Assembly (NCBI GenBank): GCA_947258885.1
Contig: CAMYKD010000018.1
Coordinates: 27,150-91,149, forward strand
From: an uncultured Kiloniellales bacterium
GTDB taxonomy: Bacteria > Pseudomonadota > Alphaproteobacteria > Kiloniellales > JAKSDN01
Reading direction: 5' to 3'
Length of the DNA: 64,000 bases
Positions within the stretch are counted from its first letter, which is position 1. Each line of letters begins with the position of its first letter. The notes under the pieces are model-generated. The model saw nothing but the letters and a program-made list of their open reading frames with translations, did not search any database and was not told the DNA's origin. This document shows positions 3,272 to 16,615 of this stretch, piece after piece. The position numbers were made by a program, and so were the translations under genes.

Positions 3272-5749
3272 GTGACCGCGCTATCCGCATTACCGGAGAA
3301 ACACCTCCCTCTGCCCCACCGCTTCGCCGAATGGTTCGCGGCGAAGGGCTGGCAACCCCACGCGCATCAGCTCGATATGCTGGCGGCGGCGGACTCGGGC
3401 AGGTCCGCGTTGCTGATCGCGCCGACCGGCGGCGGCAAGACCTTGGCCGGTTTCCTGCCCGCCCTGATCGACTTGGCGGAAAGCCCGCGCGACGGACTGC
3501 ACACGCTCTACGTCTCGCCCTTGAAGGCACTCGCCGTCGACATCCACCGCAACCTGACGCGGCCGATCCAGGAGCTGGGCCTCGACATTGACTGCGAGAC
3601 GCGCACCGGCGATACGCCCCAGGCCAAGCGCCAGCGCCAGCGTCGCCGCCCTCCACAACTTCTGCTGACCACGCCGGAATCGCTCGCCCTCCTGCTCTCC
3701 TACCACGACGCGCCGCAGGTGTTCGCAGGCCTGAACTCGGTGGTGGTCGACGAGTTGCATGCGCTGGCCGACAACAAGCGCGGCGATCTGCTGGCGCTCG
3801 GTCTGGCCCGCCTGCAAGGCTTGGCGCCCGGCTGCCGCCGGGTCGGCCTCTCGGCCACGGTGCACGACCCGCAGGCGCTGGTCGCCTGGCTCTCGCCGAC
3901 GGGGCGCCATGAGGACGCACCGCTCCGCCTGATCCAGGCCGGCGGGGGCGCCGCGCCCGAGGTCGAGATCCTGGGGACTCGCGCCCATCTGCCCTGGTCC
4001 GGACACATGGCGGTCCATGCCCTCGCCGAGGTCTTCGAGCGCATCCGCGCGGCACGCACCACGCTCGTCTTCGTCAACACCCGCGCCCAGGCTGAGATCG
4101 TGTTCCGCGAGCTGTGGCGGCTCAACGAGGAGGGCCTCGCGATCGCGCTGCACCACGGCAGCCTCTCGGCCGAACAGCGGCGCAAGGTCGAGGCGGCCAT
4201 GGCGCGCGGCGAGCTGCGCGCGGTGGTCGCGACCTCCTCGCTCGATCTCGGGGTCGACTGGGCGGCGGTCGATCTGGTGGTGCAGGTCGGCGCGCCCAAG
4301 GGCGTCTCGCGCCTGCTTCAACGCATCGGCCGGGCCAACCACCGCCTCGACCGGCCGAGCCGGGCGCTGCTCGTTCCGGCCAACCGCTTCGAGGTGCTGG
4401 AATGCCGTGCCGCGCTGGACGGCCTGCGCGCCGGCACCCTGGACGGCGACCCGGCCAAACCCGGCGGCCTCGACGTGCTGGCCCAGCACATCCTCGGCAC
4501 CGCCTGCTCCGGGCCCTTCGATGCCGAGACCCTCTACGCCGAGGTGACGCGCGCCGCGCCCTACGCCGCGCTCCCGCGCCCGGACTTCGACGACGTGCTG
4601 GCCTTCGTCGCCGACGGCGGCTACGCGCTCGGCGGTTACGAACGCTACCGGCGGCTCGGGCGAGACCGCGAAGGACGCTACCGGGTCGCCTCGCCGGCCC
4701 ATCTGCGCCGCTACCGCATGAACGTCGGCACGATCGTCGAAGCGCCGACGGTCCGGGTGAAGCTGAAGCGCGGCCGCATGCTGGGCGAGGTCGAAGAGCA
4801 CTTCGTCCGGGGCTTGGTCCCCGGCGACAGCTTCGTCTTCGCCGGCGAGCTCCTGACCTTCGAAGGCCTGCGCGAGACCTGGGCCGAGGTCATCCGCGGC
4901 CCTGCCGGCGGCGAACCCAAGGTGCCGGCCTACGCGGGAGGCCGCTTGCCGCTCTCGACCCACCTGGCCGAGCGCGTGCGCGCCATGCTCGAAGCCCCGG
5001 GACGTTGGCGTGACCTGCCGGCGAACGTCGCCGATTGGCTGTTCATGCAACGCCGGCGCTCGATCCTACCGCCGGTTGAAGGCCTGCTGGTCGAAACCTT
5101 CCCGCGCGGCCAAAAGCAGTTCCTGGTCGCCTACTGCTTCGAGGGGCGCAACGCGCACCAAACCCTCGGCATGCTGCTGACCCGGCGCATGGAGCGCGCG
5201 GGCCTGGGGCCGCTGGGCTTCGTCGCCACCGACTACGTGCTCGCGGTGTGGAGCCTCGAGCCCGTGACCGACGCGGCCGCGCTGCTCGACCAGGACATGC
5301 TGGGCGACGACCTGGAAGAATGGATGGCGGACTCCTCCATGCTGCGCCGGACCTTCCGCCAGGTCGCGGTGATCGCCGGCTTGATCGAGCGGCGCTATCC
5401 CGGCCGGGAAAAGAGCGGCCGTCAGGTCACCGTCAGCGCCGATTTGATCTACGACGTGCTGCGCAAGTACGAGCCGGACCACGTGCTGCTGCGCGCGACC
5501 CGGGCCGACGCCGCGGGCGGCCTGACCGACATCGGCCGCCTGGCCGGGCTGCTGGCCCGCGTCCAGGGTCGCATAACGCATCGCGCTCTGCCCCGGGTCT
5601 CGCCGCTCGCCGTGCCGGTCCTGCTCGAGATCGGCAAGGAACAGGTCACTGGCGCCGCGCTCGACGAATTGCTCGACGAAAGCGCGCGGGCGCTGATCGA
5701 GGAGGCCACGGGTAGGCTGCAGGTGATACAGGCGGAGCTGCCGCTGTGA
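3272..5749 (+). CDS. Lhr-like DEXH-box helicase (ligase-associated DNA damage response type)
   Basis: 825-aa ORF with GTG start. Helicase motifs present: APTGGGKT (Walker A), VVVDELHAL (DEXH), LSATV, QRIGRANH (motif VI), followed by a long Lhr-type C-terminal region. The stop overlaps the pdeM start (GTGA). Confidence 0.9.
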   Translation: MTALSALPEKHLPLPHRFAEWFAAKGWQPHAHQLDMLAAADSGRSALLIAPTGGGKTLAGFLPALIDLAESPRDGLHTLYVSPLKALAVDIHRNLTRPIQELGLDIDCETRTGDTPQAKRQRQRRRPPQLLLTTPESLALLLSYHDAPQVFAGLNSVVVDELHALADNKRGDLLALGLARLQGLAPGCRRVGLSATVHDPQALVAWLSPTGRHEDAPLRLIQAGGGAAPEVEILGTRAHLPWSGHMAVHALAEVFERIRAARTTLVFVNTRAQAEIVFRELWRLNEEGLAIALHHGSLSAEQRRKVEAAMARGELRAVVATSSLDLGVDWAAVDLVVQVGAPKGVSRLLQRIGRANHRLDRPSRALLVPANRFEVLECRAALDGLRAGTLDGDPAKPGGLDVLAQHILGTACSGPFDAETLYAEVTRAAPYAALPRPDFDDVLAFVADGGYALGGYERYRRLGRDREGRYRVASPAHLRRYRMNVGTIVEAPTVRVKLKRGRMLGEVEEHFVRGLVPGDSFVFAGELLTFEGLRETWAEVIRGPAGGEPKVPAYAGGRLPLSTHLAERVRAMLEAPGRWRDLPANVADWLFMQRRRSILPPVEGLLVETFPRGQKQFLVAYCFEGRNAHQTLGMLLTRRMERAGLGPLGFVATDYVLAVWSLEPVTDAAALLDQDMLGDDLEEWMADSSMLRRTFRQVAVIAGLIERRYPGREKSGRQVTVSADLIYDVLRKYEPDHVLLRATRADAAGGLTDIGRLAGLLARVQGRITHRALPRVSPLAVPVLLEIGKEQVTGAALDELLDESARALIEEATGRLQVIQAELPL

Positions 5750-6429
5750 GACGCGGTTCCGAGGTCCTGGTCAACGGCGTGGAGCTGCTGGCCGACGTTT
5801 CAGGAGCGCTCTACTGGCCGGCGCTGCGCACGCTGGTGGTCGCGGATCTGCATCTGGAGAAGGGCTCGGCATTCGCGGCACGAGGACAGCTGCTGCCGCC
5901 CTACGACAGCGCCGCGACGCTGCAGGCCCTGGCCGAGGTTATCGTCCGTCGCGATCCCGAGCGGGTCATCTGCCTGGGCGACAGCTTCCACGACGACGGC
6001 GCGGCCGGGCGCTTGGCGTCCGCCGACGGCGCGGCGTTGCGCCGCCTGACCGCCGCCCACGACTGGATCTGGATCGCGGGCAATCACGACCCTGTCCCCC
6101 CGGTCGCTTGGGGCGGGAAGGTCGAAACCCGGGTCACGCTGGGCGCGCTCGCATTCCGGCATCGGGCCGGCGGCGACCGCGCACCCGGGGAGATTTCGGG
6201 CCACTACCACCCCACGGCCTCGGTGCGCACGCGCGCCAGGCGGATCACTGGGCGCTGTTTCGTGGGCGACGGCAGGCGCCTGATTCTGCCCGCCTTCGGC
6301 GCCTACACCGGCGGCCTCGACGTGCTCGACCCGGCCATCGCCGGGCTTTTTCCGCGCGGCTTTTCGGTCCACCTGCTCGGCCGCGGCGCGGTCCACAGCT
6401 TCTCCGGGACGGCATTGGCGGCCGGATAG
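5746..6429 (+). CDS. pdeM: ligase-associated DNA damage response endonuclease PdeM (metallophosphoesterase)
   Basis: 227 aa. Calcineurin-like phosphoesterase motifs: VVADLHLEKG, CLGDSFHD, GNHDP, GHYHP. Translationally coupled to the upstream Lhr-like helicase. Confidence 0.85.
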   Translation: MRRGSEVLVNGVELLADVSGALYWPALRTLVVADLHLEKGSAFAARGQLLPPYDSAATLQALAEVIVRRDPERVICLGDSFHDDGAAGRLASADGAALRRLTAAHDWIWIAGNHDPVPPVAWGGKVETRVTLGALAFRHRAGGDRAPGEISGHYHPTASVRTRARRITGRCFVGDGRRLILPAFGAYTGGLDVLDPAIAGLFPRGFSVHLLGRGAVHSFSGTALAAG

Positions 6430-6683
6430 GTCCTGCGGGCCGGCGGCGACCCGTGGATCAGGAAGCCGATCGTCGGCGCGGGATTGCGGGTCGGTGCCAC
6501 CCATCACCGCTCATACCGGGGGCTCATGGGAAGTCAACAGATCGACCGGATCTGTGGCTGGGCCTGCGAGCACGCACCCTGAAACGAGATCTTTCGTTAT
6601 AGTTGCTTTCTTTTCAAGGATATTCTCCCTTCTCAACGTTCTGGGCCAGCCCCGTCAGGCAGTGCGGGCAATGATCTTTTTCG

Positions 6684-6708
6684 GGAAGAAATCGCCGGAC
6701 CGGGTGTT
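6684..6708 (+). promoter_or_regulatory. ECF-type promoter candidate upstream of G/S-rich gene 1
   Basis: GGAAG-AAATCGCCGGACCGGG-TGTT (GGAAG, N16, TGTT), ending 43 nt before ATG 6752. The same architecture recurs at 9664-9688(-), 9778-9802(+) and 11392-11416(+). The 16-nt block CGGGAAGAAATCGCCG is identical to the one at 11390-11405. Confidence 0.6.
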
Positions 6709-6751
6709 TTCTGAACAACGGCCATTGCAACTACAGAGTAGGTAAAATCTT

Positions 6752-7048
6752 ATGAAAAACAAAACCATAGCCGATGAAGCCGTCGAGACGAACGTCGACC
6801 TGGACCGGCGGCGAGCCCTTGCCCGTCTCGGGCTCGGTCTTTCGGCCGCCTACGCGGTCCCGGCCCTACTGACCTTGAGCCGCGGCGCCCACGCCTCGAG
6901 CGGCGATGGCGGCTCTGGCGGCTCGGGTGGCTCCGGCGGCGATAGCGGCTCCGGCGGCAGCGCCTCTGGCGCCAGCGTCAGCGGTCCGAGCAGCGACGAT
7001 CCGGCGGTCGTGTCGGACGGTAGCAGCGGCCCGTCCGTCGATCCCTAG
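6752..7048 (+). CDS. small Gly/Ser/Asp-rich protein 1 with conserved twin-Arg leader (candidate secreted protein or modified-peptide precursor)
   Basis: 98 aa: MKNKTIADEAVETNVDLDRRRALARLGLGLSAAYAVPALLTLSRGAHA|SSGDGGSGGSGGSGGDSGSGGSASGASVSGPSSDDPAVVSDGSSGPSVDP. It has a Tat-like RR n-region, an h-region and an AxA site. The core has no Lys, Arg or aromatic residues. Paralogous to the ORFs at 9890 and 11473. Confidence 0.75.
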   Translation: MKNKTIADEAVETNVDLDRRRALARLGLGLSAAYAVPALLTLSRGAHASSGDGGSGGSGGSGGDSGSGGSASGASVSGPSSDDPAVVSDGSSGPSVDP

Positions 7049-7065
7049 CCCTAGACAACTTTCAT

Positions 7066-7092
7066 CCGCCGGGCCCTTTACGGGCCCGGCGG
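7066..7092 (+). terminator. strong GC hairpin between G/S-rich gene 1 and the kinase-RRE gene (terminator/attenuator candidate)
   Basis: CCGCCGGGCCC-TTTAC-GGGCCCGGCGG forms an 11-bp perfect stem 18 nt after stop 7048. It is followed by GCTCTTTGT, which is only a weak U-tract. Confidence 0.5.
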
Positions 7093-7155
7093 GCTCTTTG
7101 TAGGATCCCCGACAGAGCGTGAGTCGAACAACGGCGTCGAGCCGGACGAGGCGCT

Positions 7156-8382
7156 GTGCCTGATAGATTGCTTCTCGAATTCGAAGGTCTGAGCCACCGG
7201 ATCGCCCTGCTGGACTGCCGCGAGGTCTATGCCTGCTTTCCGGGGGTGTTCCGCGGCTGGAAGATCCATGAAGCCGGAACCGCCGACCAACCCCCGATCC
7301 TGACCCTCGCGGGCTCTGGCGAAGGCTATACCCTGGAAACCCCCTGGCTCGACCAGCCGCTGGTGCGCCGCGACAAGATCGACGCGCTCTGCGGCTTCAT
7401 CGCCGAGTTCATCCGGGCCTATGTCAACGACGACCAGCGGCTGCTCTGCCTGCACGGCGCGGCAGCCGAGTTCGCCGGCAAACTCGTGGTCTTTCCGAAC
7501 CGCTACCGGGCCGGCAAGAGCGTGCTCTCCGCCTGCCTGGCGGCGGCCGGGGTGCGCCTCTTCGCCGACGACGTGCTGCCGATCGGCGGGCCGGACGACC
7601 TCGGCATGGCGCCGGGCATCGTGCCGCGTCTGCGGCTGCCGCTGCCGGACAACCTGACTCCGGCAACAAGGGACTTCCTGGAGGCCCGCCGGGGACCGAG
7701 CGGCAAGCGTTATCTCTACCTGGACTTGGCCGCGGCGGAACTCGCCAGCTACGGCACGCTGGCGCCCATCGGCGGTTTCGTGCTGCTCGAGCGGGAAGCG
7801 GGGGCGGATCTCGATCTCGCGCCGGTCGACCCGGGCGAGATGCTGCGCCAAGTGATCTGGCAGAACTTCGCCCGCGAGACCCCGGCGCCCGAGATCCTGC
7901 GGCGCCTGGAGCGCATCGTCGGTCGCGCCCGCTGCCTTCGCCTGCGCTACGACCGGGCGGACGAGGCCGTGGCCCTGCTCAAGGAAACATTCGCGAGCTG
8001 GCCCGCGGCCGCGGAGGATCCCGAAGGAGCGGTTCAGGATGCACATGGCCCGGGGCCGTCCGCGCCGACAGGGAACGTCCCGACCGGTTGCTATCTGCGC
8101 AATCCGGACATTACCGAAACGAAGGTGGGGGTGGAACACTTCCTGGCCGACTCGAAGGGCGCGGCGATCCACAACCTCAACGCCGTCGGCTCTGCGCTCT
8201 GGCAGCTCATGGCCGAGCCCAGGACCATCGATGAGCTGGTCGACCCGCTGCACGCCGCCTTTCCCGAGGTCGCTCGCACGCAGATCGAGCAGGACGTGCG
8301 CGCACTGCTCAAGGGTCTCATCGCCAAGCGGCTCGTGATGGCGGGATCCGAGGACATCCGGGGGCGCCAGAGCGCCTCGTGA
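7156..8382 (+). CDS. HprK-like serine kinase domain fused to C-terminal PqqD-family (RiPP recognition element-like) domain
   Basis: 408 aa, GTG start. The N-terminal ~300 aa carry HPr kinase C-domain-like motifs: LCLHGAAAEFAGKLVVF, the P-loop-like RYRAGKSVLSACL, and VRLFADDVLPI. The C-terminal ~90 aa are PqqD-like: AAIHNLNAVGSALWQLMAEPRTIDELVDPLHAAFPEVARTQIEQDVRALLKGLIAKRLV. Confidence 0.75.
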   Translation: MPDRLLLEFEGLSHRIALLDCREVYACFPGVFRGWKIHEAGTADQPPILTLAGSGEGYTLETPWLDQPLVRRDKIDALCGFIAEFIRAYVNDDQRLLCLHGAAAEFAGKLVVFPNRYRAGKSVLSACLAAAGVRLFADDVLPIGGPDDLGMAPGIVPRLRLPLPDNLTPATRDFLEARRGPSGKRYLYLDLAAAELASYGTLAPIGGFVLLEREAGADLDLAPVDPGEMLRQVIWQNFARETPAPEILRRLERIVGRARCLRLRYDRADEAVALLKETFASWPAAAEDPEGAVQDAHGPGPSAPTGNVPTGCYLRNPDITETKVGVEHFLADSKGAAIHNLNAVGSALWQLMAEPRTIDELVDPLHAAFPEVARTQIEQDVRALLKGLIAKRLVMAGSEDIRGRQSAS

Positions 8383-8403
8383 AAGGTGCCCCTGGAAAGC
8401 CGG

Positions 8404-9048
8404 CTAGCTGTCGCTGATCAGAACCAACCGCGTCTTCCACTGGCCCTCGGGCGCGCGGCAGGCGATGGCGCGGCGAATCTCCGATTTGCCGTCCAGCGCC
8501 TCCAACGCGGTGTATTCCCGGCACCACTGGCCGCCTCTGTTCTTGAAGGTGCGCACCGGCGTAATCTCGCCGGTCTTGCCGCTGTCCGGATTGCGCCAGG
8601 CAGCGGCCTCGCCGCTCACATTTTTCTCCAAGGCCTGGGTTAACGCCGCTTCCCTGACCCGCTGATCCGCCTGCCCGACGGCGTGGAGCCGGGCGATCTC
8701 CTGCTCGACCCGGTAGTCGACCAACAGGAACCCGCCGCCCAGCCCGACGATCAGCATGGCAAGCGACGCGGCAAGCGCAACGGGCCAAGGACTGCGCCAG
8801 GGACCGCTGCGGCTCGCCCGCTCGGCGGACGTTGCCTGGATCGCCTGGAGGACGCGGGCCGGAACCGGCGCGTTCAACGGTTCGTTGAAGGCCGAGCGCA
8901 ACAGCTCGGCGCTCTCGCGCAGCCGGCGGACGGTTTCGCGGGCTTCGGAATCCCCGGCAAGCGCCGCTTCCACGCGCGCAGTCTCGCTCTGGTCGAGTTG
9001 TCCGTCTACGTAGGCGACCAAGAATTCCGGATCGATAAATTGGGTCAT
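8404..9048 (-). CDS. anti-sigma factor, single TM, periplasmic surface-antigen-like Cys-pair domain
   Basis: Start at MTQFIDPEFLVAYVDGQLDQSETARVEAALAGDSEARETV, an anti-sigma N-terminal helix-type sequence. ATG 9048 lies 4 nt after the sigma stop. TM segment: WPVALAASLAMLIVGLGGGFLLV. C-terminal domain: W.NPDSGKTGEITPVRTFKNRGGQWCREY...ACRAPEGQW. Confidence 0.8.
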   Translation of the reverse strand: MTQFIDPEFLVAYVDGQLDQSETARVEAALAGDSEARETVRRLRESAELLRSAFNEPLNAPVPARVLQAIQATSAERASRSGPWRSPWPVALAASLAMLIVGLGGGFLLVDYRVEQEIARLHAVGQADQRVREAALTQALEKNVSGEAAAWRNPDSGKTGEITPVRTFKNRGGQWCREYTALEALDGKSEIRRAIACRAPEGQWKTRLVLISDS

Positions 9049-9052
9049 GACG

Positions 9053-9586
9053 TCACCTCGCCGGTTCCGGGGTCGGGGTCGGCTGTTCGCCGCCAACGAA
9101 GGCTTTCAGGGCCAGCCGCGCCCGGGCGAGGCGGCTGGTCACGGTGCCGATGGGCAGCTCCAGCATTTCCGAGACCTCCCGGTAGGACAGGCCCTCCACG
9201 GTAACAAGCAGCAGGATGGTCTTCTGCTCCTCGGGCAAGCGATCGACGAAACCGCGCACCGCCTCGAAGGTCATCTGCGCCTCGGCGGCCCGCACTCCGT
9301 CCACCGTGCCGTGCTCGACCGGGTCGATGCTGGCCAGGTGCTGGCCGCGCACGCCCTTGGCGCGCAGGTCGTTCAGATGGAGGTTGCGTGCGATGCGATA
9401 CATCCAACTGTCCAGCCGGGTCCCCGGTTGCCATTGATCGATGTGGCGGATCGCCCTTTCGCAGGTCGCCTGCAAAAGGTCGTCGCCGTCGTGCACAGAG
9501 CCGGTCAGGCCGTAGGCGAAGCGGCGCAGTCGGGGCAGAAACGCGAGCATTTCACGGCGAATCGTCTCGTCCAACTCTGATCGCAC
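9053..9586 (-). CDS. ECF (extracytoplasmic function) RNA polymerase sigma-70 family factor
   Basis: 177 aa. Region 2: DLLQATCERAIRHIDQWQPGTRLDSWMYRIARNLHLNDLRA. Region 4: LPEEQKTILLLVTVEGLSYREVSEMLELPIGTVTSRLARARLAL. GTG start at 9586; an alternative ATG lies at 9550. Confidence 0.9.
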   Translation of the reverse strand: MRSELDETIRREMLAFLPRLRRFAYGLTGSVHDGDDLLQATCERAIRHIDQWQPGTRLDSWMYRIARNLHLNDLRAKGVRGQHLASIDPVEHGTVDGVRAAEAQMTFEAVRGFVDRLPEEQKTILLLVTVEGLSYREVSEMLELPIGTVTSRLARARLALKAFVGGEQPTPTPEPAR

Positions 9587-9663
9587 CCTTTGCCTGAGAC
9601 CACCCTGGAGACCCTGGTGGACCTGAAGTGTCCCGGATCCTCGAGGACCGACCTCAATTCAAC

Positions 9664-9688
9664 AACACGCGAAATCGGGGTTTATTCC
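9664..9688 (-). promoter_or_regulatory. ECF-type promoter candidate upstream of the sigma gene (autoregulation)
   Basis: On the minus strand it reads GGAAT-AAACCCCGATTTCGCG-TGTT (N16). It lies 77 nt upstream of the sigma start at 9586. Confidence 0.55.
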
Positions 9689-9777
9689 CCCTGCACGACG
9701 CTATTACACTACTCAGTACCAGAGAAACCGACCTACGTTATGGTTAACGACCGTGTACGAAAAGACCCTTGGTCGGC

Positions 9778-9802
9778 GGAAGATTTCTTGCCCTGAGGTG
9801 TT
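9778..9802 (+). promoter_or_regulatory. ECF-type promoter candidate upstream of G/S-rich gene 2
   Basis: GGAAG-ATTTCTTGCCCTGAGG-TGTT (N16), 87 nt upstream of ATG 9890. It is divergent from the sigma-gene promoter candidate. Confidence 0.55.
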
Positions 9803-9889
9803 ATTTGGGCAAGACAGGTAGAGGTGGCGCTCCCTCGCGCCAGTCGCGGGGATCGCGGCAAAGAGTTACACACGGGCAGGAAGCAGTCG

Positions 9890-10432
9890 ATGTCGATCAA
9901 CCAGTTCCGGCGCAATCTTCGCCTACTCGCCTCGACCAGCGTCTTGGCCTGCGCGATTATTGGGGCGCCGGTCTCCGTACGGGTCCAGCTGGACGGCCCG
10001 GGTTGGCATTTCGAAGCGCCTCTGATCGGTTCCGGAGTTTTTCGTCATACCTCCGGCGAGAGCTTGGAGCCCGGCACCGCGGAGCTCGGTACCGACAGGA
10101 GCGCTGACGAAGCGCGGCGCAAGGCCCTGGCGCGCCTCGGCCTGGGTGAAGGCACACCCTATGAGCCTCCCGTATTGCTCACCCTGAGCCAGGCCCAGGC
10201 AGCGTCCGGCAGTGGCAGCGGTGGTGACAGCGGCGGTGATAGCGGTTCCTCAGGGGGCGACGACTCCGGTGGCAACAGCGGCCCCGGAGGGGCATCCGGC
10301 CCAAGCAGCGGCACATCGGGGACTTCCGGTACGGCCGGCGCGAGTGGCGGCAGCTTTGGCGACGTGGAGCAGGCAGGCCCCAGTCTCAGCCAGGATGAAG
10401 AGGCGACAGCGATCAGCACCGGTTGGCAGTGA
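9890..10432 (+). CDS. Gly/Ser-rich protein 2: own N-terminal signal, an internal copy of the conserved leader module, then a G/S-rich tail
   Basis: Preferred ATG 9890 (AGGAAG upstream). Signal: MSINQFRRNLRLLASTSVLACAIIGAPVS. After ~60 aa comes ...DEARRKALARLGLGEGTPYEPPVLLTLSQAQAASGSGSGGDSGGDSGSSGGDDSGGNSGPGG.... The track ORF starts at GTG 9824. Confidence 0.7.
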   Translation: MSINQFRRNLRLLASTSVLACAIIGAPVSVRVQLDGPGWHFEAPLIGSGVFRHTSGESLEPGTAELGTDRSADEARRKALARLGLGEGTPYEPPVLLTLSQAQAASGSGSGGDSGGDSGSSGGDDSGGNSGPGGASGPSSGTSGTSGTAGASGGSFGDVEQAGPSLSQDEEATAISTGWQ

Positions 10433-10812
10433 GTAGCCGCGTCCCGAATCCTTACTATGGACTGCCGTGGCTGGCAGCTTTCATGCTCGCGTCATGCACG
10501 GCGCAGGGTCCGGGATCATCCCAGGAGGCGGCGCGGGACACGTTCTACGATGGCTTGAGCACCGAGGAAATCGCGGTCGCGCAGCAGGCCGTCCAAGAGG
10601 CGCTCGAAAGCCGGCTGAGCAACGAGACGTCCCAGTGGACGTACCCAAACGGCAGCTCAGGCTCGGTCACGCCGCTCCGCACCTTCCGCACCAAGACGGG
10701 TCACTATTGCCGGGACTATGCCGAATCCCTCGCCAAGGGGTCTCAGCCGGGCTCCACCGTCAGGACGGCATGCCGCGGCAGCCAGGGTATATGGCGGGTG
10801 GTCAAGCGCTAA
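10423..10812 (+). CDS. lipoprotein with surface-antigen-like Cys-pair domain (paralog of the anti-sigma periplasmic domain)
   Basis: TTG 10423 (or GTG 10429) overlaps the end of the upstream gene. Lipobox: AAFMLASC. Domain: SQWTYPNGSSGSVTPLRTFRTKTGHYCRDY...ACRGSQGIW. It aligns position for position with the anti-sigma C-terminus. Confidence 0.7.
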   Translation: MAVSSRVPNPYYGLPWLAAFMLASCTAQGPGSSQEAARDTFYDGLSTEEIAVAQQAVQEALESRLSNETSQWTYPNGSSGSVTPLRTFRTKTGHYCRDYAESLAKGSQPGSTVRTACRGSQGIWRVVKR

Positions 10813-11080
10813 CGTCGGCCCCAGAGCGCTGGACCGCGCTCGACTTCGCGGTGCTCGCACGCATCGACAGCGTCAGCAACGCCGGAGGACAGCAAAACCA
10901 GCACGCCCGGCGAGCCGGCTAAGTCCGCCGGCGGTTTCGGCTGTCTCGAACAGATGGGCCCCGACCTGAGCACCGGCGACGAGGCCGAGGCCATCCAGCG
11001 TGGAGGGCAATAACAGCCACGCCTCGGATCGCCCTGCAGGGCCTGATCGGCAACCAAACCCCGCACTCGACAGACCGCGC

Positions 11081-11319
11081 CTAGCCCGCATTTCTCACAC
11101 TGTCCACGGTCTGCGTCGCGTTCAGGCGGTGCGCTCGGCTAGGAGAAGGGCGAAAAGCGCAGCCGTAGCTACGGTTGAGGCTTTCGACGCGGCCGACACC
11201 CGGCTGGGCGCGACCCAGCCGTGCGGCGCGATGCTGAAGCATCGGGCAAGCGGCTTGACGCACCCTGTTGGCGGGACAGCGTCGCGCAGACCATGGACAG
11301 TGTGAGAAATGCGGGCTAG
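11081..11319. repeat. ~239-bp element bounded by 35-bp inverted repeats (MITE-like element or long-stem structured RNA)
   Basis: The left arm at 11081-11115 is CTAGCCCGCATTTCTCACACTGTCCACGGTCTGCG. The right arm at 11285-11319 is its reverse complement with one mismatch. The interior holds several short palindromes (CCGTAGCTACGG, GGCTGGG..CCCAGCC, GATGCT..AGCATC). No credible ORF. Confidence 0.7.
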
Positions 11320-11391
11320 CGGCGGACTTACGGGTCTCGTCTACCGGTGGCCTTCCCGATCTCCCCGCACGAACTTTTCTTTCGCCGCGCG

Positions 11392-11416
11392 GGAAGAAAT
11401 CGCCGTTCGGCGTGTT
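11392..11416 (+). promoter_or_regulatory. ECF-type promoter candidate upstream of G/S-rich gene 3
   Basis: GGAAG-AAATCGCCGTTCGGCG-TGTT (N16), 56 nt upstream of ATG 11473. Confidence 0.6.
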
Positions 11417-11472
11417 TGGTTAATGGAAGGTTAACGCACTCCCTTTGTCCTACGCTCGAGAGGAGTTATGTC

Positions 11473-11877
11473 ATGAGCAACAAAACCGAAGAGAAAGCGA
11501 CCGACGGGCTCACGGCCGAAATGAATCGCCGCAGGGCACTTGCCCGCATTGGCTTGGGCGTTTCCGTTGCCTATGCAGCACCGGTCCTGATGAACCTAAG
11601 CCAAGCGGCGGCGTCGTCCGGCAGCGGTTCGAGCGGACCGAGCGGCCACGGCGGGCCGGACGGCGACGAAGGGTCGAGCGGCCACAGCGGGCCGAGCGGC
11701 CACGGCGAGTCGAGCGGCGACGAAGGGTCGAGCGGCGACGAAGGGTCGAGCGGCCACAGCGGGCCGAGCGACTATAGCGAAGGGCCCAGCTCTCCCTCGG
11801 GACCGAGCGACTATAGCGAAGGGCCCACCTCTCCCTCGGGACCGAGCGACTATAGCGAAGGGCCCACCTATCGCTAA
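11473..11877 (+). CDS. small Gly/Ser/His/Asp-rich protein 3 with conserved twin-Arg leader and tandem SDYSEGP repeats
   Basis: 134 aa from ATG 11473 (GAGGAG upstream). Sequence: MSNKTEEKATDGLTAEMNRRRALARIGLGVSVAYAAPVLMNLSQAAA|SSGSGSSGPSGHGG...(SGPSDYSEGPxSP)x3...TYR. The N-terminus and leader are collinear with gene 1. Confidence 0.75.
   Translation: MSNKTEEKATDGLTAEMNRRRALARIGLGVSVAYAAPVLMNLSQAAASSGSGSSGPSGHGGPDGDEGSSGHSGPSGHGESSGDEGSSGDEGSSGHSGPSDYSEGPSSPSGPSDYSEGPTSPSGPSDYSEGPTYR
11761..11870 (+). repeat. 39-bp in-frame tandem repeat (~2.8 copies) inside G/S-rich gene 3
   Basis: GG(G/A)CCGAGCGACTATAGCGAAGGGCCCA(G/C)CTCTCCCTCG occurs at 11761, 11800 and, truncated, at 11839. GGCGACGAAGGGTCGAGC is also repeated three times between ~11663 and 11751. 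Confidence 0.9.
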
Positions 11878-11991
11878 GAATCGAGGGGTCCTTCGGGCTC
11901 GATCGGTCTCACGCCGACCTAATCTCGGGGATCCTCGAGAACGCGGCAGAGAAAGCAGCGTTCGGAATGTGATGCGCGGCGAGGCCGGCCC

Positions 11992-13392
11992 CTACCCGGC
12001 CTCGCCGAGGCATTCGTCGAGGATGCCGAGCGCCCGGTCCATTTCGTCTTCGGTGACGACGAGCGGCGGGCTCAGGGTCAGCACGCTGCCCATGGTGGTT
12101 TTGAAGCTGAGCCCGCGGTCGAGCGCCCGATACAGGACCTCCTCGGTGGCCTCCGTCGCGGGCTCCTTGCTCTCCCTGTCGGCCACCAGCTCCAGTCCGA
12201 GCAGCAGCCCGCGCCCGCGCACGTCGCCGACCAAGCGATGCCGGTCCTTCAGGTCGTGCAACCGTTCGAGCGCGCGGGCCCCGACCTCGGCGGCATGCTC
12301 GACCAGCCCCTCCTGCTCGATGATCTCGATCGTGGTGAGCGCCGCCCGGGCGGTCACCGGGTTCTTTTCGTGGGTGTAGTGGCCGACCGCCCAGGCACCG
12401 GCCGCGTCCAGCCCGGGCTGGCAAAGCACGGCCGCAATGGGCAGCATGCCGCCGCCCAGCGCCTTGCCGAGAACCAGGATGTCCGGCACCACCGCCTCGT
12501 GCTCGCAGGCGAACATGCGCCCGGTCCGGCCCAGCCCGGTCGGGATCTCGTCGAAGATCAAGAGCGCCCCATGGTCGTCGCAGGCCTGGCGCACCGCCTG
12601 CCAGAAGCCCGGCGGCGGCAGGTAAGGCACGGCACGGGCCGGCTCGGCGACCACCGCCGCCACGTCGCCCTCCTTCTCCAGCACGTAGCGTACGAAATTG
12701 GCGCAGGTCATGTGGCAGAGATCGAGCTGTGGCCGACCGTCGCGATCCGGATAGCCATAGGGGCAGCGGTAGCAGGTGAAGGGGGCGACATGCTCGCCGC
12801 CCGGCAGCAGCGGCCCGACCGGCCCGGAGCGGAATAGCTGCTCGCCGCCAACGCTGGCGCCGCCGAAGCCCGCGCCGTGGAAAGAATCCCAGAACGACAC
12901 GGTCTTGTGCCGGCCCGTGGCCGCGCGGGCGACCTTGAGCGCCACGTCGATCGCGTCGGATCCGCCGGTCGTGAACAGCGCCTTGGAGAGCGCGCCCGGC
13001 GAGATCCCGGCCAGCTTGCGCGCCAGCGCCACGGCCGGCTCGCAGGTAAAGCGCCGCGGCGCGAAGGGCAACTCGTCGAGCTGCGCCTTGATCGCCGCCT
13101 TGAGCCGCGGATGGCCGTAGCCGATGTGATGGACGTTGTTGCCGTGGAAGTCCATGTAGCGCCGGCCGGCCAGGTCCTCGATCCAAATGCCCTCGGCGCG
13201 GCGCACGACCGAAAGGCAGGGCGTCGAGATCGACTGGTGCAGAAAGTAGCGGGCGTCCTGCTCGACCAGCGCCCGGGTCGCCGCATCGTGGGTCGCCGCC
13301 GTCCAGCGCCGCCGGCGTTCGGAGGTGTTGCTCTCGCCTTCCGAGAGATGCGGCACGGCTCCCGGCTTGACCTTGCCCTCATTTGTGCTCAT
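11992..13392 (-). CDS. class-III (fold-type I) PLP aminotransferase-family enzyme; candidate PbfA-type (R)-1-hydroxy-2-aminoethylphosphonate ammonia-lyase
   Basis: Start at MSTNEGKV (ATG 13392). Motifs: FTTGGSDAIDVALKVAR, LLIFDEIPTGLGRTG, VLGKALGGG (PLP Lys). Located directly downstream of phnW and phnX on the same strand. The PbfA assignment comes from context only. Confidence 0.8.
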   Translation of the reverse strand: MSTNEGKVKPGAVPHLSEGESNTSERRRRWTAATHDAATRALVEQDARYFLHQSISTPCLSVVRRAEGIWIEDLAGRRYMDFHGNNVHHIGYGHPRLKAAIKAQLDELPFAPRRFTCEPAVALARKLAGISPGALSKALFTTGGSDAIDVALKVARAATGRHKTVSFWDSFHGAGFGGASVGGEQLFRSGPVGPLLPGGEHVAPFTCYRCPYGYPDRDGRPQLDLCHMTCANFVRYVLEKEGDVAAVVAEPARAVPYLPPPGFWQAVRQACDDHGALLIFDEIPTGLGRTGRMFACEHEAVVPDILVLGKALGGGMLPIAAVLCQPGLDAAGAWAVGHYTHEKNPVTARAALTTIEIIEQEGLVEHAAEVGARALERLHDLKDRHRLVGDVRGRGLLLGLELVADRESKEPATEATEEVLYRALDRGLSFKTTMGSVLTLSPPLVVTEDEMDRALGILDECLGEAG

Positions 13393-13543
13393 GGCTTTGC
13401 GCTGTGCTCCAAGGCCGCGACATGGACGACTGCCAGGTCGAAGGCATCGGTTCGCGGTCCCGCGCCGGACGGGTCCCGCTTGGCGCGTCACTGGACTTGC
13501 GGCGCCAAGCGGGACGGGTTCGGACCGATGAACGCCTTTCGAG

Positions 13544-14398
13544 CTATGGCTTTTCGCCGCGGGCCAGGCGCTCGTTGACGTCGTCGATGACCTCGGGCAG
13601 CTGGGTGAACTCGTCGATGACGTAGTGGGCACCCGCCTTGCGCAGGATCTCCCGAGTCAGGGCCAGGCGACGCTGCATCTCCTCGTCGGGCAGGCTCTTG
13701 GCCTCGTCGAGCGAATTGACGTTCATGTAGTTGCTATAGCGGGCGATGCCGACGCCCCAGCAGCCGGCTTCCAGGGCCTCGCCGACGCCCGAGACGGTGT
13801 CGTCGACCTTCACGACGGACTGGATCGGATGCACGTCCAGCATGTCCAGGTTGCGATAGACCATAAAGGGCTTGGGGCGCGCGCCGTGCTCGACCTCGTC
13901 GCCGGCGACCGAGGCATCGGGCGTGTAGCCCTGCTTCTTGGCGTCCTCCTCGAGGATGTCGACCATGGAGCGCACGAAGCCGGTCGAGCTGCCGATCTTG
14001 ATGCCGTAGTCGTTCTGCAGCCTCTGCGTGGTCTCGGCCACGCCGGGCAGCAGGTCCGTGTACTGGCGCAAGCACTCGAGCTGCATCGGCACGAAGTCCG
14101 CGAACATGCGGTCGATGTCGCCCTGGTCGGGGTCCTTGCCGTGGACCGCCTTCCAGCGTTCGCGGATCTCAGGCACCTCGGTCAGCGCCTTGATGTGAAG
14201 ATCCTTCCTGAGCCCCATGGGCCCCCGGGCCTCGAGCATGGAGATCTCGACACCGTGCTTCCCGAACACGTCGACGAAAACCACGGCAGGAGCCAGCACA
14301 TAGGCGTCAGCGGTGGTGCCGCTCCAATCCAGAACGATCCCCTTGACCTTGCCCCTGTAGCTTCTGGTGTAAACGTAATCCGAACGCAGACTCATCAT
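13544..14398 (-). CDS. phnX: phosphonoacetaldehyde hydrolase (phosphonatase)
   Basis: 284 aa. HAD motif I in the PhnX context (IVLDWSGTTAD). Adjacent to phnW. Confidence 0.9.
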   Translation of the reverse strand: MMSLRSDYVYTRSYRGKVKGIVLDWSGTTADAYVLAPAVVFVDVFGKHGVEISMLEARGPMGLRKDLHIKALTEVPEIRERWKAVHGKDPDQGDIDRMFADFVPMQLECLRQYTDLLPGVAETTQRLQNDYGIKIGSSTGFVRSMVDILEEDAKKQGYTPDASVAGDEVEHGARPKPFMVYRNLDMLDVHPIQSVVKVDDTVSGVGEALEAGCWGVGIARYSNYMNVNSLDEAKSLPDEEMQRRLALTREILRKAGAHYVIDEFTQLPEVIDDVNERLARGEKP

Positions 14399-14491
14399 GT
14401 CCTCCTATGGATTTGTCCCACGGGTGCCGGGCCGGCTCCCTATTTCTACGCGTTTGCTTCGCCGGGCCGACAAGCCCGCCTTCCGCCGACC

Positions 14492-15637
14492 TCAGGCGGC
14501 CGCCGGCATACAGTTGGCCACGCCCATTTCGCCGAGCGTCTCGCGGATGGCGGCGAGCGCGCCTTCCATCTGTTCGGGTCCCAGGCGGCCGATGCAGCCG
14601 ATGCGAAAGCTGTCGGCAACGGTCAGCTTGCCCGGATAAATGACATAGCCGCTCCGGCGCAGCCGGTCGTAGAAGGCCTCGAAGTCGAACTTCGGATCGA
14701 CCGGCTTGTGAAATGTCACGATGACCGGCGCCTGCAGCGCGTCGGGCAGCAGCGTGCGAAAGCCGAGCGCGCGCATGCCCTCGATCAGGATCCGGCAGTT
14801 CCGGGCGTATCGCGCGCCGCGTCCCGCGACACCGCCCTCGGCCTCGAACTCCTCGAGTGCCCGGTCGAAGGCGAGGATGCAGTGGGTCGGCGGCGTGAAG
14901 CGCCACTGGCCGTTCTGTTCCATCGAAACCCATTGGTCGTAGAGATCGAGGCTGAGCGAAGGGCTGTTGCCCTTGGTCCGCTCCAGCGCCTCCTTGCGTG
15001 CGATGCAGAAACCCATGCCGGGCACGCCTTCCAGGCATTTGTTGGACGAGGCCACCACGGCATCGAAGGGTATCGCGCGCGCGTCCAGCGGGATCGCCCC
15101 GAAGGCGCTCATCGCGTCGATCAGGAGGCCTCGGCCGTGCCTGGCCGTCACTTCGGCCACGGCCTGGAGCGGGTTGAGGATGCCCGAGGTCGTCTCGCAG
15201 TGGACCACGGCGACATGGCTTACTTCGCGGTCGGCAGCCAGTGCGGCGTCGAGCGCTTGGGGATCGACCGGCGTGTCCTCGGGCGTTTCCTGGATCACCG
15301 TGGCGCGGTCGTAGTACTCGCAGATCCGGGCGATCCGCTTGCCGTAGGCGCCGTTCACCAGGACCAGGACCTTGCCGTCGGGCGGCACGAAGTTGCCCAT
15401 CATGGCCTCGACCACGAAGGTGCCGCTGCCTTGGAGCGGCACGCAGACGTGGCCGTCATCGCCGTTCACGATCTCGACCAGCCGCTCGCGGACCCGCCGG
15501 TTGACCGCGATGAAACGCGTATCGCGCGAGCCGTAGTCGTGCAGCATGGCCTCTTTGATACCTGGCGAGGTGGTCAGCGGGCCGGGTGTGAGCAGCCAGG
15601 GGTCGCCGGTCGGCGAAGCGGAAGGTGCGGTGGTCAT
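14492..15637 (-). CDS. phnW: 2-aminoethylphosphonate--pyruvate transaminase
   Basis: Start at MTTAPSASPTGDPWLLTPGPLTTS (ATG 15637, GAGGGGA RBS). Class-V aminotransferase fold with SSNKCLEG (PLP Lys). The track ORF extends to 15694. Confidence 0.9.
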   Translation of the reverse strand: MTTAPSASPTGDPWLLTPGPLTTSPGIKEAMLHDYGSRDTRFIAVNRRVRERLVEIVNGDDGHVCVPLQGSGTFVVEAMMGNFVPPDGKVLVLVNGAYGKRIARICEYYDRATVIQETPEDTPVDPQALDAALAADREVSHVAVVHCETTSGILNPLQAVAEVTARHGRGLLIDAMSAFGAIPLDARAIPFDAVVASSNKCLEGVPGMGFCIARKEALERTKGNSPSLSLDLYDQWVSMEQNGQWRFTPPTHCILAFDRALEEFEAEGGVAGRGARYARNCRILIEGMRALGFRTLLPDALQAPVIVTFHKPVDPKFDFEAFYDRLRRSGYVIYPGKLTVADSFRIGCIGRLGPEQMEGALAAIRETLGEMGVANCMPAAA

Positions 15638-15707
15638 GGCGGGTGTCCCCTCGTTGTCATGCGGTGGACGGTTGCGCACTATGGGAACGATCATTAATAT
15701 AAATCAA

Positions 15708-15744
15708 ATCGATATTTTTTATATCTATCATAGGTTATATCGAT
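15708..15744. promoter_or_regulatory. AT-rich divergent phnW/lysR control region with inverted repeat ATCGATAT-N21-ATATCGAT
   Basis: The 8-bp arms lie at 15708-15715 and 15737-15744, in the only AT-rich stretch between the divergent genes. Plausible LysR-type operator; not proven. Confidence 0.3.
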
Positions 15745-16615
15745 GAATTTTGCTCAGCTTCGGGCCTTCCATGCGGTCGCGACCGCGGGCAGCTATACCC
15801 GGGCCTCCGAGACCCTCCACGTCACCCAGCCGACCCTCTCGGGCCAAGTCAAGGCGCTGGAGGAAAGTTACGGCGTGCGGCTGTTCGAGCGACGGGGGCG
15901 GGGCGTCGAACTGACCGGGCTGGGCCGCGGGCTGCTCGACATCACCCGCCGACTCTACGCGATCGAGGCCGAAGCGGAGCAGCTGCTCTCGGCGGCCCGC
16001 AGTCTGACCGGCGGCCAGCTACGGGTCGGGGCCGACGCGCCCTACCACGTGATCCCCCTGCTCGCCGCCTTCAACCGGCGCCATCCGGGCATCCAGCTCT
16101 CGCTGAGCTTCGGCAACTCGGAGAAGGTGCTGCACGACCTCTTCGAACGGCGTAGCGAGGTGGCGGTTCTGGCCGACCTCAAGGCCGACCGGCGGCTCTA
16201 CGCCCTGCCCTTCCGCAGGGACCGCCTGGTGGTCTTCGTCGAGCGGGGCCATCCCTGGGCCCGGCGCCGCAGCATCCGGCTGGCCGAGTTGGCCGACCAG
16301 CGGCTGGTGCTGCGCGAGCCGGGCTCGATCACGCGGGCCATCTTCGAGCGGGCGATTGCGGCGGCCGAAGTGGCGCCGGGCGAGATCCTGGAGATCGGCA
16401 GCCGCGAGGCGGTGCGCGAGGCGGTGGCCGCGGGCCTCGGCATCGGCGCGGTCTTCGAGAGCGAGTTCGGCCGCGACCCGCGCCTGCACGCGCTGGCCGT
16501 GCGCGATGCGGATCTGGAGGCCGTCGAGTCCGCCGCCTGCCTCGAGGACCGCCGGCCGGTGCGCGTCGTGCGCGCCTTCTTCGATCTCATACGGGAAACG
16601 AACCCGGCGATTTGA
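15743..16615 (+). CDS. LysR-family transcriptional regulator (phosphonate cluster)
   Basis: 290 aa. N-terminal wHTH: MNFAQLRAFHAVATAGSYTRASETLHVTQPTLSGQVKALE. Divergent from phnW. Confidence 0.9.
   Translation: MNFAQLRAFHAVATAGSYTRASETLHVTQPTLSGQVKALEESYGVRLFERRGRGVELTGLGRGLLDITRRLYAIEAEAEQLLSAARSLTGGQLRVGADAPYHVIPLLAAFNRRHPGIQLSLSFGNSEKVLHDLFERRSEVAVLADLKADRRLYALPFRRDRLVVFVERGHPWARRRSIRLAELADQRLVLREPGSITRAIFERAIAAAEVAPGEILEIGSREAVREAVAAGLGIGAVFESEFGRDPRLHALAVRDADLEAVESAACLEDRRPVRVVRAFFDLIRETNPAI

Follow-up and report, generated by a model that had tools for sequence, protein, structure and literature searches.

The closest described counterparts of the system considered here are pathways in which a relative of HPr kinase modifies a ribosomal precursor together with a recognition element for peptides that are made on ribosomes and modified after translation (RiPP recognition element, RRE). 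The linear polyphosphorylated peptides (LPPs) of Bacillota are produced by the HprK-like kinase LppK and the RRE LppB from a precursor, LppA, with a YxxP leader; LppS, a signal-peptidase-I-like enzyme of the archaeal type, removes the leader, and the system also includes the MsbA-like exporter LppD and the nucleoside triphosphate (NTP) transferase LppN (Popov et al., Nat Commun 2026; PMC13381572). LPPs have been described as restricted to Bacillota (PMC13381572). Phosphorylated lasso pathways employ the kinases PadeK, ThcoK and SyanK, of the paeninodin type, or BsfK with the RRE BsfB1 (PMC8498205, PMC10368454). BsfK has been validated experimentally as a lasso kinase, and BsfB1 stimulates phosphorylation by it (PMC10368454). 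The motif bound by lasso-type RREs is YxxPxL, defined more broadly as [Y/W]xxPx[L/V/I/F/A], and the phosphorylated residue in both LppA and BsfA is Ser3 (PMC10368454, PMC13381572). In the window analysed here, a 64-kb stretch of contig CAMYKD010000018.1 from an uncultured Kiloniellales bacterium, three precursor genes share a 31-residue leader module that contains this motif, and near them lies a gene for a 408-residue protein in which an HprK-like domain is fused to a lasso-type RRE. The arrangement points to a compact proteobacterial form of leader-guided peptide phosphorylation that has not been described before.

A leader module common to three precursors

The original prediction, made from the window alone, drew attention to a leader shared by three Gly/Ser-rich open reading frames (ORFs), and these ORFs and all the peptide strings quoted from them are present exactly as written. 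Gene 1 (6752-7048, + strand; 98 aa) and gene 3 (11473-11877, + strand; 134 aa, in an ORF spanning 11347-11877) carry the module at residues 18-48, corresponding to nt 6803-6895 and 11524-11616, respectively. Gene 2 (9890-10432, + strand; 180 aa, in an ORF spanning 9824-10432) carries it at residues 75-105 (nt 10112-10204). Pairwise, the modules are identical at 18-19 of 31 positions, a score matched by none of 100,000 shuffles, and blastp with the module only gives E values of 2e-10 to 4e-13 among the three genes. Since these module-only comparisons already exceed chance, the similarity is not due to the Gly/Ser tails. None of the three precursors matches an NCBIfam or Pfam family.

The module is a member of a large family. 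A profile of the three leaders retrieved 29 small proteins from 5.8 billion sequences, and an exhaustive search for its distribution with HMMER, covering 1.8 billion representatives, yielded 656 clusters (at 50% identity) with E <= 0.001. Among the best 150 of these clusters, nearly all the proteins are 44-260 aa long and have the module at the N terminus. The consensus, DLxRRxALxRLGLxxSxAYAAPVLLTLSxAxA, is followed by low-complexity Gly/Ser or Ser/Glu/Pro sequence. In 15 diverse leaders R19, R20, G27, L28, Y34 and P37 are invariant and L39 is nearly so; the Y..P pair is present in every one of the 63 distinct family sequences scored. The YxxPxL motif reads YAVPAL in gene 1 (6851-6868, + strand), YEPPVL in gene 2 and YAAPVL in gene 3 (11572-11589, + strand), and its invariance spans Alpha-, Beta- and Gammaproteobacteria as well as Desulfobacterota. 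Its Tyr precedes the predicted AxA cleavage site, at -14 or -15, and in gene 1 stands 15 residues before the junction of AHA and Ser. Canonical lasso leaders have the equivalent position at -17, LppA has it at -16 and PbaA at -15.

The sequences that follow the leader are far more variable. In gene 1, a hydrophilic N-region (aa 1-17) and the module precede a Gly/Ser/Asp core of 50 aa; the whole product is 100% identical to a database protein, P0001 (P and L numbers are labels given in this analysis to database proteins and genome loci). The start of gene 3 was set at ATG 11473 because this codon is served by a ribosome-binding site, GGAG, and because the longer ORF would run through a promoter-like motif (11392-11416). 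The gene 3 core (11633-11869), composed of Ser, Gly, Pro, Asp and Glu, is encoded by tandem DNA repeats with periods of 18, 36 and 54 nt, and also holds a 39-nt unit present in 2.8 copies with 97% identity (GPSDYSEGP.SPS). In the gene 3 orthologue of loci L010 and L011 the leader is conserved and the core is wholly different, consisting there of TSGG repeats. All three cores are net acidic, as had been claimed (charges of -6, -9 and -13, the first being that of gene 1), but the accompanying claim that they lack Lys, Arg, Trp and Phe has exceptions: gene 2 contains a single Phe and a single Trp, both in its C-terminal tail, and the last residue of gene 3 is Arg.

A second type of precursor, about 64 aa long, has the leader QRRALARLGLA.AGAYVAPTLLALRS and a short hydrophobic core, TAVTAMPAVDIGVAA, instead of Gly/Ser repeats. 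It is encoded in L004 (9879-10073), L007 (3190-3384), L008 (3927-4121), L043 (~6162-6293) and L057 (~7603-7731).

A kinase-like domain fused to a recognition element

The 408-residue enzyme (7156-8382, + strand) begins with a kinase-like domain of the HprK/PEPCK fold (aa ~1-285, nt 7156-8010) and continues with a lasso-type RRE/PqqD domain at aa ~310-396 (nt 8083-8343). As it shows no evident signal peptide, the protein is probably cytoplasmic. Homologues form at least 293 clusters, all of about 400 aa, whose NCBI annotation is at most "PqqD family protein". An AF2 model built from 30 homologues has a pLDDT of 87 and a pTM of 0.84; with Foldseek, residues ~1-285 of the model match the folds of ATP-dependent phosphoenolpyruvate (PEP) carboxykinase and HPr kinase/phosphorylase, and residues ~310-396 match TbiB1 with its leader (TM 0.84-0.86, root-mean-square deviation 1.5 A, 28% identity).

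The assignment of the C-terminal domain is borne out by sequence profiles. The Pfam PqqD model PF05402 matches aa 327-394 with 51.9 bits (1e-13), above the gathering threshold of 23.4; the lasso and PQQ PqqD models of NCBIfam match below their cut-off (30.7 vs 80). Compared with the Protein Data Bank (PDB), the family profile finds four solved leader-binding RREs that recognize YxxP or WxxP: TbiB1 (7.5e-9), LppB (9x8z, 1.1e-7), PbaB1 (9x90, 4.8e-6) and TfuB1 (5.5e-4). Leader contacts of LppB can be carried over to the enzyme residue by residue. L32, N33, W40, D70, F74, M78 and L83 correspond to L341, N342, W349, D380, L384, L388 and L393, all of them invariant, and Y60 aligns with F369, which is nearly so. 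In LppB, N33 fixes the kink at the Pro of the motif, D70 hydrogen-bonds the Tyr hydroxyl, and L32, F74, M78 and L83 form the pocket (PMC13381572). It is quite likely that the module is the docking site of this RRE.

In the N-terminal domain, H100, K121, S122, D138 and D139 are invariant in an alignment of 30 sequences, as is an RLRLP loop, and these residues align with the catalytic set of BsfK and HprK. The P-loop is PNRYRAGKS (aa 114-122, nt 7495-7521). The family profile aligns to BsfK (25 bits) through the pattern LHG...GxGKS...ADD...G.AP.LRL, and to BsfB1 (29 bits); BsfK as a lone query recovers the enzyme ORF in the window and 41 loci. The fold, the RRE matches and the alignments to BsfK and BsfB1 together suggest that the enzyme is a fusion of a lasso-type kinase with its B1 partner.

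Enzyme and module occur together. In metagenomes, each of the five distinct contexts of module proteins has a PqqD protein of ~400 aa 100-800 bp downstream. From the enzyme side 50 genome loci were recovered in the four lineages named above, nearly all in metagenome-assembled genomes (MAGs) and one in an isolate, Mesorhizobium sp. KR9-304. Where at least 450 bp are available upstream, a module ORF adjoins the enzyme in 40 of 43 loci, almost always just upstream; with L013, in which a run of N masks the leader and the Gly/Ser core tail is visible, the count is 41. L059 holds a partial enzyme only. Homologues of the module, which might have turned out to be widespread without modifying enzymes, are thus paired with one in 41 of 43 loci and 5 of 5 contexts. 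One enzyme accompanies three module genes in the window, as in L010 and L011. Paired paralogous enzymes are present in the five loci that encode the ~64-aa precursors, each enzyme behind its own precursor type.

The system resembles the LPPs but is not a member of that group. Both lack a cyclase and use a linear precursor made by the ribosome, 35-200 aa long, whose conserved N-terminal leader contains YxxPx[V/L], a lasso-type RRE in which the residues of LppB that contact Tyr, Pro and Val map to conserved, mostly invariant columns, and an HprK-like kinase; leader removal of the signal-peptidase type, predicted here, and a Tyr ~15-16 residues before the cleavage site are further likenesses. In LPP clusters, however, the kinase and the RRE are discrete proteins, whereas here they form one polypeptide, and no counterparts of LppS, LppD or LppN were found in the annotated neighbourhoods or near the cassette in the window. 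The leader also differs: here it resembles a full export signal with an Arg-Arg pair (RR), an h-region and AxA, and of the LPP consensus YxxPxVLxHQxIxFETxxS only the YxxPx[VL] part is common, the ...VLxHQxIxFETxxS tail being missing. The cores are low-complexity repeats of Gly/Ser or Ser/Glu/Pro, unlike those of LPPs, and the genes occur in Alpha-, Beta- and Gammaproteobacteria and in Desulfobacterota; phosphorylation of the cores is predicted here.

The likeness to the lasso kinases is of a similar kind. There, too, an HprK homologue acts on the linear precursor and a B1 RRE binds a YxxPxL leader, and both BsfK and BsfB1 can be aligned with the family profile. Unlike the lasso pathways, the family in the window has no lasso cyclase (C protein), B2 peptidase or ABC exporter, no Thr or Ile at position -2, and much longer, low-complexity cores. 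A BsfB2 query had no match in the window or in 59 loci, no transporter, peptidase or cyclase is conserved in the annotated neighbourhoods, and neither the neighbourhoods annotated with Pfam nor the window ORFs at 3.2-16.6 kb include a family of the Asn-synthase or transglutaminase type. Because C and B2 proteins are missing, this is not a lasso cluster and its products cannot be lasso peptides. A literature search for HprK-related kinases returned no papers, one for RREs with HPr kinase returned lasso papers only, and one for links between twin-arginine signals and RiPP leaders returned nothing relevant.

Predicted export, the internal copy and alternative readings

On balance we favour the view that the region encodes a leader-guided Ser/Thr phosphorylation system whose leader is also an export signal. 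In the proposed mechanism, the cytoplasmic enzyme would dock by its C-terminal RRE onto YxxPxL in the module, and its HprK/BsfK-like N-terminal domain would phosphorylate Ser or Thr of the low-complexity core. Either a single Ser close to the junction of leader and core, possibly polyphosphorylated, or many Ser residues could be targets, and one enzyme would serve all three substrates. For genes 1 and 3 the module, with its RR n-region, ~18 uncharged residues and AxA, would also be a cleavable export signal, the general twin-arginine translocation (Tat) or Sec route and housekeeping signal peptidase I replacing the dedicated leader peptidase and exporter of the related pathways. In gene 2, export would have shifted to a new N-terminal signal of the lipoprotein type that may anchor the protein through its lipobox; the module there, having lost its hydrophobicity and kept its docking residues, could still make the protein a substrate. 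We offer more tentatively the evolutionary form of this proposal, that an export signal peptide was co-opted as a RiPP-style leader and that the kinase-RRE fusion phosphorylates Ser-rich disordered cargo before it leaves by Tat or Sec.

Several observations weigh against this proposal. The curated Tat models TIGR01409 and PF10518 do not match the leaders at E <= 10 (six leaders) or at E <= 0.1 (Pfam), and RR need not mean Tat, because the pair is kept in the non-exporting copy of gene 2. Export targeting would have to compete with an RRE that grips the h-region, and phosphorylated, strongly acidic chains may be poor cargo for Sec or Tat. P0177 joins the module to a dihaem cytochrome c, and c-type cytochromes normally leave the cytoplasm unfolded by Sec; P0177 is, moreover, encoded on a 3.8-kb contig without an enzyme gene, and L012 has an enzyme without a precursor nearby. 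For the kinase, the best NCBIfam match is TIGR04352 (HprK_rel_A), with 40.7 bits (E = 1.4e-10), far below the cut-off of 200 and restricted to aa 93-140. A search of the PDB by sequence with the kinase core gave no HprK match, so that kinship with HprK rests on the fold, the NCBIfam match and the BsfK alignment. The Walker A motif departs from the usual form, with [NS]xYRAGKS instead of GxxGxGKS (the paralogous second-type enzymes have a canonical P-loop, GGPRSGKS). Finally, some cores are poor in Ser: the L049 core has Ser and Thr fractions of 0.02 and 0.16, and the 64-aa type has only 1-3 Ser or Thr.

Tat signals combine an RR n-region with a moderately hydrophobic, uncharged h-region of at least about 13 residues and AxA, and the original prediction read the leaders of genes 1 and 3 in this way. 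As far as composition goes, that reading holds. The RR pair stands at aa 19-20 in both genes, followed in gene 1 by LGLGLSAAYAVPALLTLS and then RGAHA before the Ser at the predicted cut, and in gene 3 by IGLGVSVAYAAPVLMNLS and then QAAA, again before Ser. Mean Kyte-Doolittle hydropathy, taken over the 19 residues after RRxALxR (the h-region and the first c-region residue), is 1.25 and 1.24, respectively. Nearly all family members have RR, ~18 uncharged residues and AxA. It is the recognition by Tat-specific models that fails, apart from a weak match of one homologue to "formate dehydrogenase region TAT target" (0.022). The RR pair may serve recognition by the enzyme.

Several proteins with the module carry folded domains. 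In P0177 (L060, 708-1271) the module and a Gly/Ser stretch are fused to the dihaem cytochrome c domain (PF09626, 2.5e-24); in P0150 they are fused to a Ysc84 domain (PF04366, 5e-32); and in P0233 (L061, 1754-2314) the module is fused to a PepSY-like domain (a weak match). The P0233 gene lies directly downstream of the L061 enzyme gene, to which it is translationally coupled, and has a response regulator downstream. Given such fusions, the system may also act on exported proteins and not only on peptides. The only subfamily with a charged h-region, the gene 2 type, is also the one with an added, separate N-terminal signal. Fused domains of periplasmic type, together with a new signal where the h-region is charged, suggest that the module normally exports its cargo. 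These features bear on the alternative that the module is a pure RiPP leader, its likeness to Tat signals being coincidental and its products either staying in the cytoplasm or leaving through an unlinked exporter and protease. That alternative would account for the lack of matches to Tat models and for the RR pair in gene 2, and the leaders of lasso peptides and LPPs are indeed not signal peptides. It is nonetheless unlikely in view of the uncharged stretch and AxA of nearly all members, the acquisition of a separate signal by the gene 2 types exactly when hydrophobicity was lost, the fusions to a dihaem cytochrome c and a PepSY-like domain, and the linkage to an extracytoplasmic function (ECF) sigma/anti-sigma pair with a periplasmic sensor domain.

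Gene 2 offers a more direct view of what is conserved in the module. Its ATG at 9890 is preceded by an AGGAAG ribosome-binding site, and an independent gene call, P0230, begins at the same Met. Residues 1-21 (nt 9890-9952, + strand) form an N-terminal signal that has a lipobox-like VLAC; a poorly conserved linker, the internal module, a Gly/Ser core and a conserved C-terminal tail follow, with the RR pair of the module at aa 76-77, outside the N-terminal ~35 residues. The gene was compared with its orthologues in L010 (a Rhodospirillales MAG) and in L011 and L029 (Kiloniellales MAGs, the latter more distant). All three have one continuous frame in which the N-terminal segment MS.NQFRRNLRLLASTSVLAC is retained (MPTPRFRRRVYLLASTSLVAC in L029). 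Amino acid identity to L010, L011 and L029 is 90, 83 and 53% in the signal, 49, 51 and 20% in the linker, and 90, 86 and 59% in the module. Nucleotide differences in the signal fall mostly at third codon positions; relative to L010 they number 2, 1 and 8 at positions 1, 2 and 3 in the signal, 13, 10 and 14 in the linker, and 1, 1 and 8 in the module. It follows from this codon-level comparison that the N-terminal extension is coding and that the module is internal, behind a separate signal, as had been proposed. A start at TTG 10064, which would put 17 residues ahead of RR, like genes 1 and 3, and restore an N-terminal module, was rejected because the segment upstream of it is conserved in frame with third-position bias.

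The claim that the h-region of gene 2 is disrupted is likewise sustained: Glu and Pro lie within it, while RRKALARLGL, YEPPVL and TLSQA are retained. In the three gene-2-type copies scored (window, L010 and L011) mean hydropathy is 0.05-0.17 with two or three charges, the window copy having a value of 0.17 and two Glu; the remaining 60 family members range from 0.85 to 1.82. The L029 module, LGLDESVSYTIPIVV, which lies outside this scoring, also has Asp or Glu in the former h-region. By these comparisons the module of gene 2 is under purifying selection, its conservation equalling that of the real signal and lying far above that of the neighbouring linker. If genes 1 and 3 were the real substrates and the module of gene 2 the functionless, decaying remnant of a former signal peptide, the accumulation of Glu, Asp and Pro in its h-region would be natural, and L031, which combines a gene-2-type C-terminal tail with an intact N-terminal module, appears to be an intermediate. 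Yet the contrast in identity between module and linker, the preponderance of third-position changes in the module, the exact retention of RR.ALARLGL, Y..P.L and TLSQA with changes confined to Ala/Ser filler, and a promoter-like motif in common with genes 1 and 3 make decay an improbable explanation.

The tail that terminates gene 2, GGSFGDVEQ.GPSLS.DEEA..I..GWQ (nt 10346-10429), is kept in L010, L011 and L029 and is also present in L031; an ending like ...NNGWQ occurs in P0263, a family member that is otherwise unrelated. The tail may be a sorting or recognition motif.

The proposed docking of an enzyme on an export signal has a parallel in the chaperones TorD, DmsD and NapD, which bind Tat signals before export. 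Here, as there, a signal with RR, an h-region and AxA is predicted to be bound by a cytoplasmic protein, with maturation preceding export. The binding domain would differ, being a RiPP RRE with a winged helix-turn-helix, as would the partner, which carries a kinase-like domain, and the predicted bound motif, which is YxxPxL within the h-region. The 408-residue protein could conceivably be a chaperone or gatekeeper of that sort, keeping the leaders from being exported, its HprK-like domain acting as a nucleotide-dependent switch; a binding site inside the h-region, the atypical Walker A with no sequence-level PDB match to HprK, and the great diversity of the cores, some of them Ser-poor, would all suit such a role. 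We regard it as quite improbable, since the residues of the BsfK/HprK catalytic set and the RLRLP loop are invariant and the nearest relatives to have been characterised are genuine peptide kinases acting together with RREs (PMC10368454, PMC13381572). That the module is an ordinary Tat or Sec signal and nothing else, borne by plain secreted low-complexity proteins beside an unrelated PqqD-domain protein, can hardly be right: RR, the uncharged stretch and AxA in genes 1 and 3, the module proteins with periplasmic domains and the one without an enzyme on a short contig would agree with it, but YxxPxL is invariant in the h-region across four lineages, far beyond normal signal-peptide conservation, the RRE enzyme adjoins in 41 of 43 and 5 of 5 contexts, and the internal copy of gene 2 is conserved despite its charged h-region. 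The same motif invariance, the lasso-type RRE next door, its co-occurrence with the module and the selection on gene 2 argue, in silico, for the central claim of the original prediction, that the module is a protein-recognition leader bound by the RRE and not only a targeting signal.

If leader-guided phosphorylation coupled to export is correct, one 31-residue segment would carry both export targeting and enzyme docking, and gene 2 would be a natural separation-of-function variant. The logic of kinase, RRE and YxxP leader reported in 2026 from Bacillota would then reach four Gram-negative lineages in a fused, stripped-down form that borrows housekeeping secretion, and a two-gene cassette would be enough to produce polyanionic peptides or protein tethers that are heavily phosphorylated and secreted. 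In Proteobacteria and Desulfobacterota, such cassettes would provide a widespread but unstudied way, under ECF (envelope) control, of producing phosphoproteins that are periplasmic or extracellular. The ~656 module clusters would be a family to mine, with products that could act in metal binding, in the matrix or in envelope signalling, and the leader profile and the fused enzyme would be ready tools for mining genomes and for phosphorylating designed Ser-rich peptides under leader guidance.

Promoter-like motif and gene neighbourhood

The three precursor genes have a promoter-like motif in common. GGAAGA-N14-GTGTT occurs in three exact copies in the window, against 0.03 expected, and each copy is upstream of one precursor gene: at 6684-6708 (+ strand), 44 nt upstream of the ATG of gene 1; at 9778-9802 (+ strand), 88 nt upstream of that of gene 2; and at 11392-11416 (+ strand), 57 nt upstream of that of gene 3. 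Its placement is identical in L010, L011 and L029. A copy with one mismatch, GGAATA-N14-GTGTT (9664-9688, - strand), lies 78 nt upstream of a gene for an ECF-type sigma-70 factor (9053-9586, - strand; Sigma70_r2/r4_2, TIGR02937), as would fit an autoregulated ECF regulon. The classical ECF motif GGAAC-N15-18-CGT was sought upstream of the precursor genes and is absent there. The motif is probably the target promoter of the local ECF sigma factor, which probably regulates the three precursor genes.

The sigma factor gene is accompanied by a gene for an anti-sigma factor (8404-9096, - strand) with a zf-HC2/RseA-like N terminus, a single predicted membrane span and, on the periplasmic side, a 17kDa_Anti_2 domain. 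A small lipoprotein-like protein (10423-10812, + strand), whose start overlaps the end of gene 2, has a lipobox, LASC, and a 17kDa_Anti_2 domain paralogous to the sensor domain of the anti-sigma factor. An ECF sigma gene is also beside the cassette in L010, L011, L026, L029, L031, L044, L051 and L056. By tblastn, the sigma factor, the anti-sigma factor and the 17kDa_Anti_2 lipoprotein recur near the cassette in distant Alphaproteobacteria and in Desulfobacterota (L026, L031, L044, L051, L056, L046, L040, L050 and L045), and recurrent neighbours are limited to the ECF sigma factor, the anti-sigma factor and the lipoprotein resembling the 17-kDa antigen. The shared motif and the recurrence of these regulators and sensor-domain proteins suggest a regulon under the control of an envelope signal. 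With the sigma gene itself included, the precursor genes may form a regulon of the envelope-stress type.

Other genes are found near the cassette in particular loci. In L004, L007, L008 and L009, which belong to one lineage, a gene for a 121-aa single-domain response regulator lies directly upstream of the precursor gene. L004 and L008 have glycosyltransferase genes a few kb downstream, and glycosyltransferase, Stealth and sulfotransferase genes are near the cassette in L001. In the window, the region upstream of the cassette (3272-6429) is syntenic with L010, L011 and L029; judged from the translations, it encodes what we take to be an Lhr-type helicase and a PdeM-like phosphoesterase. Downstream, at 11992-16615, the translations presumably represent a class-III aminotransferase, an apparent phosphonoacetaldehyde hydrolase, a 2-aminoethylphosphonate transaminase and a LysR regulator.

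A scan of 6400-11950 with Rfam gave zero matches. The intergenic region before gene 3 contains a 51-nt inverted repeat, itself without an Rfam match, with arms at 11065-11115 and 11285-11335 around 169 nt. The arms are 86% complementary and include a perfect 23-nt core, GCCCGCATTTCTCACACTGTCCA; the repeat occurs once in the window. Since the spacer is ~440 nt longer here than in L010 and L011, the inverted repeat may be a small inserted element.

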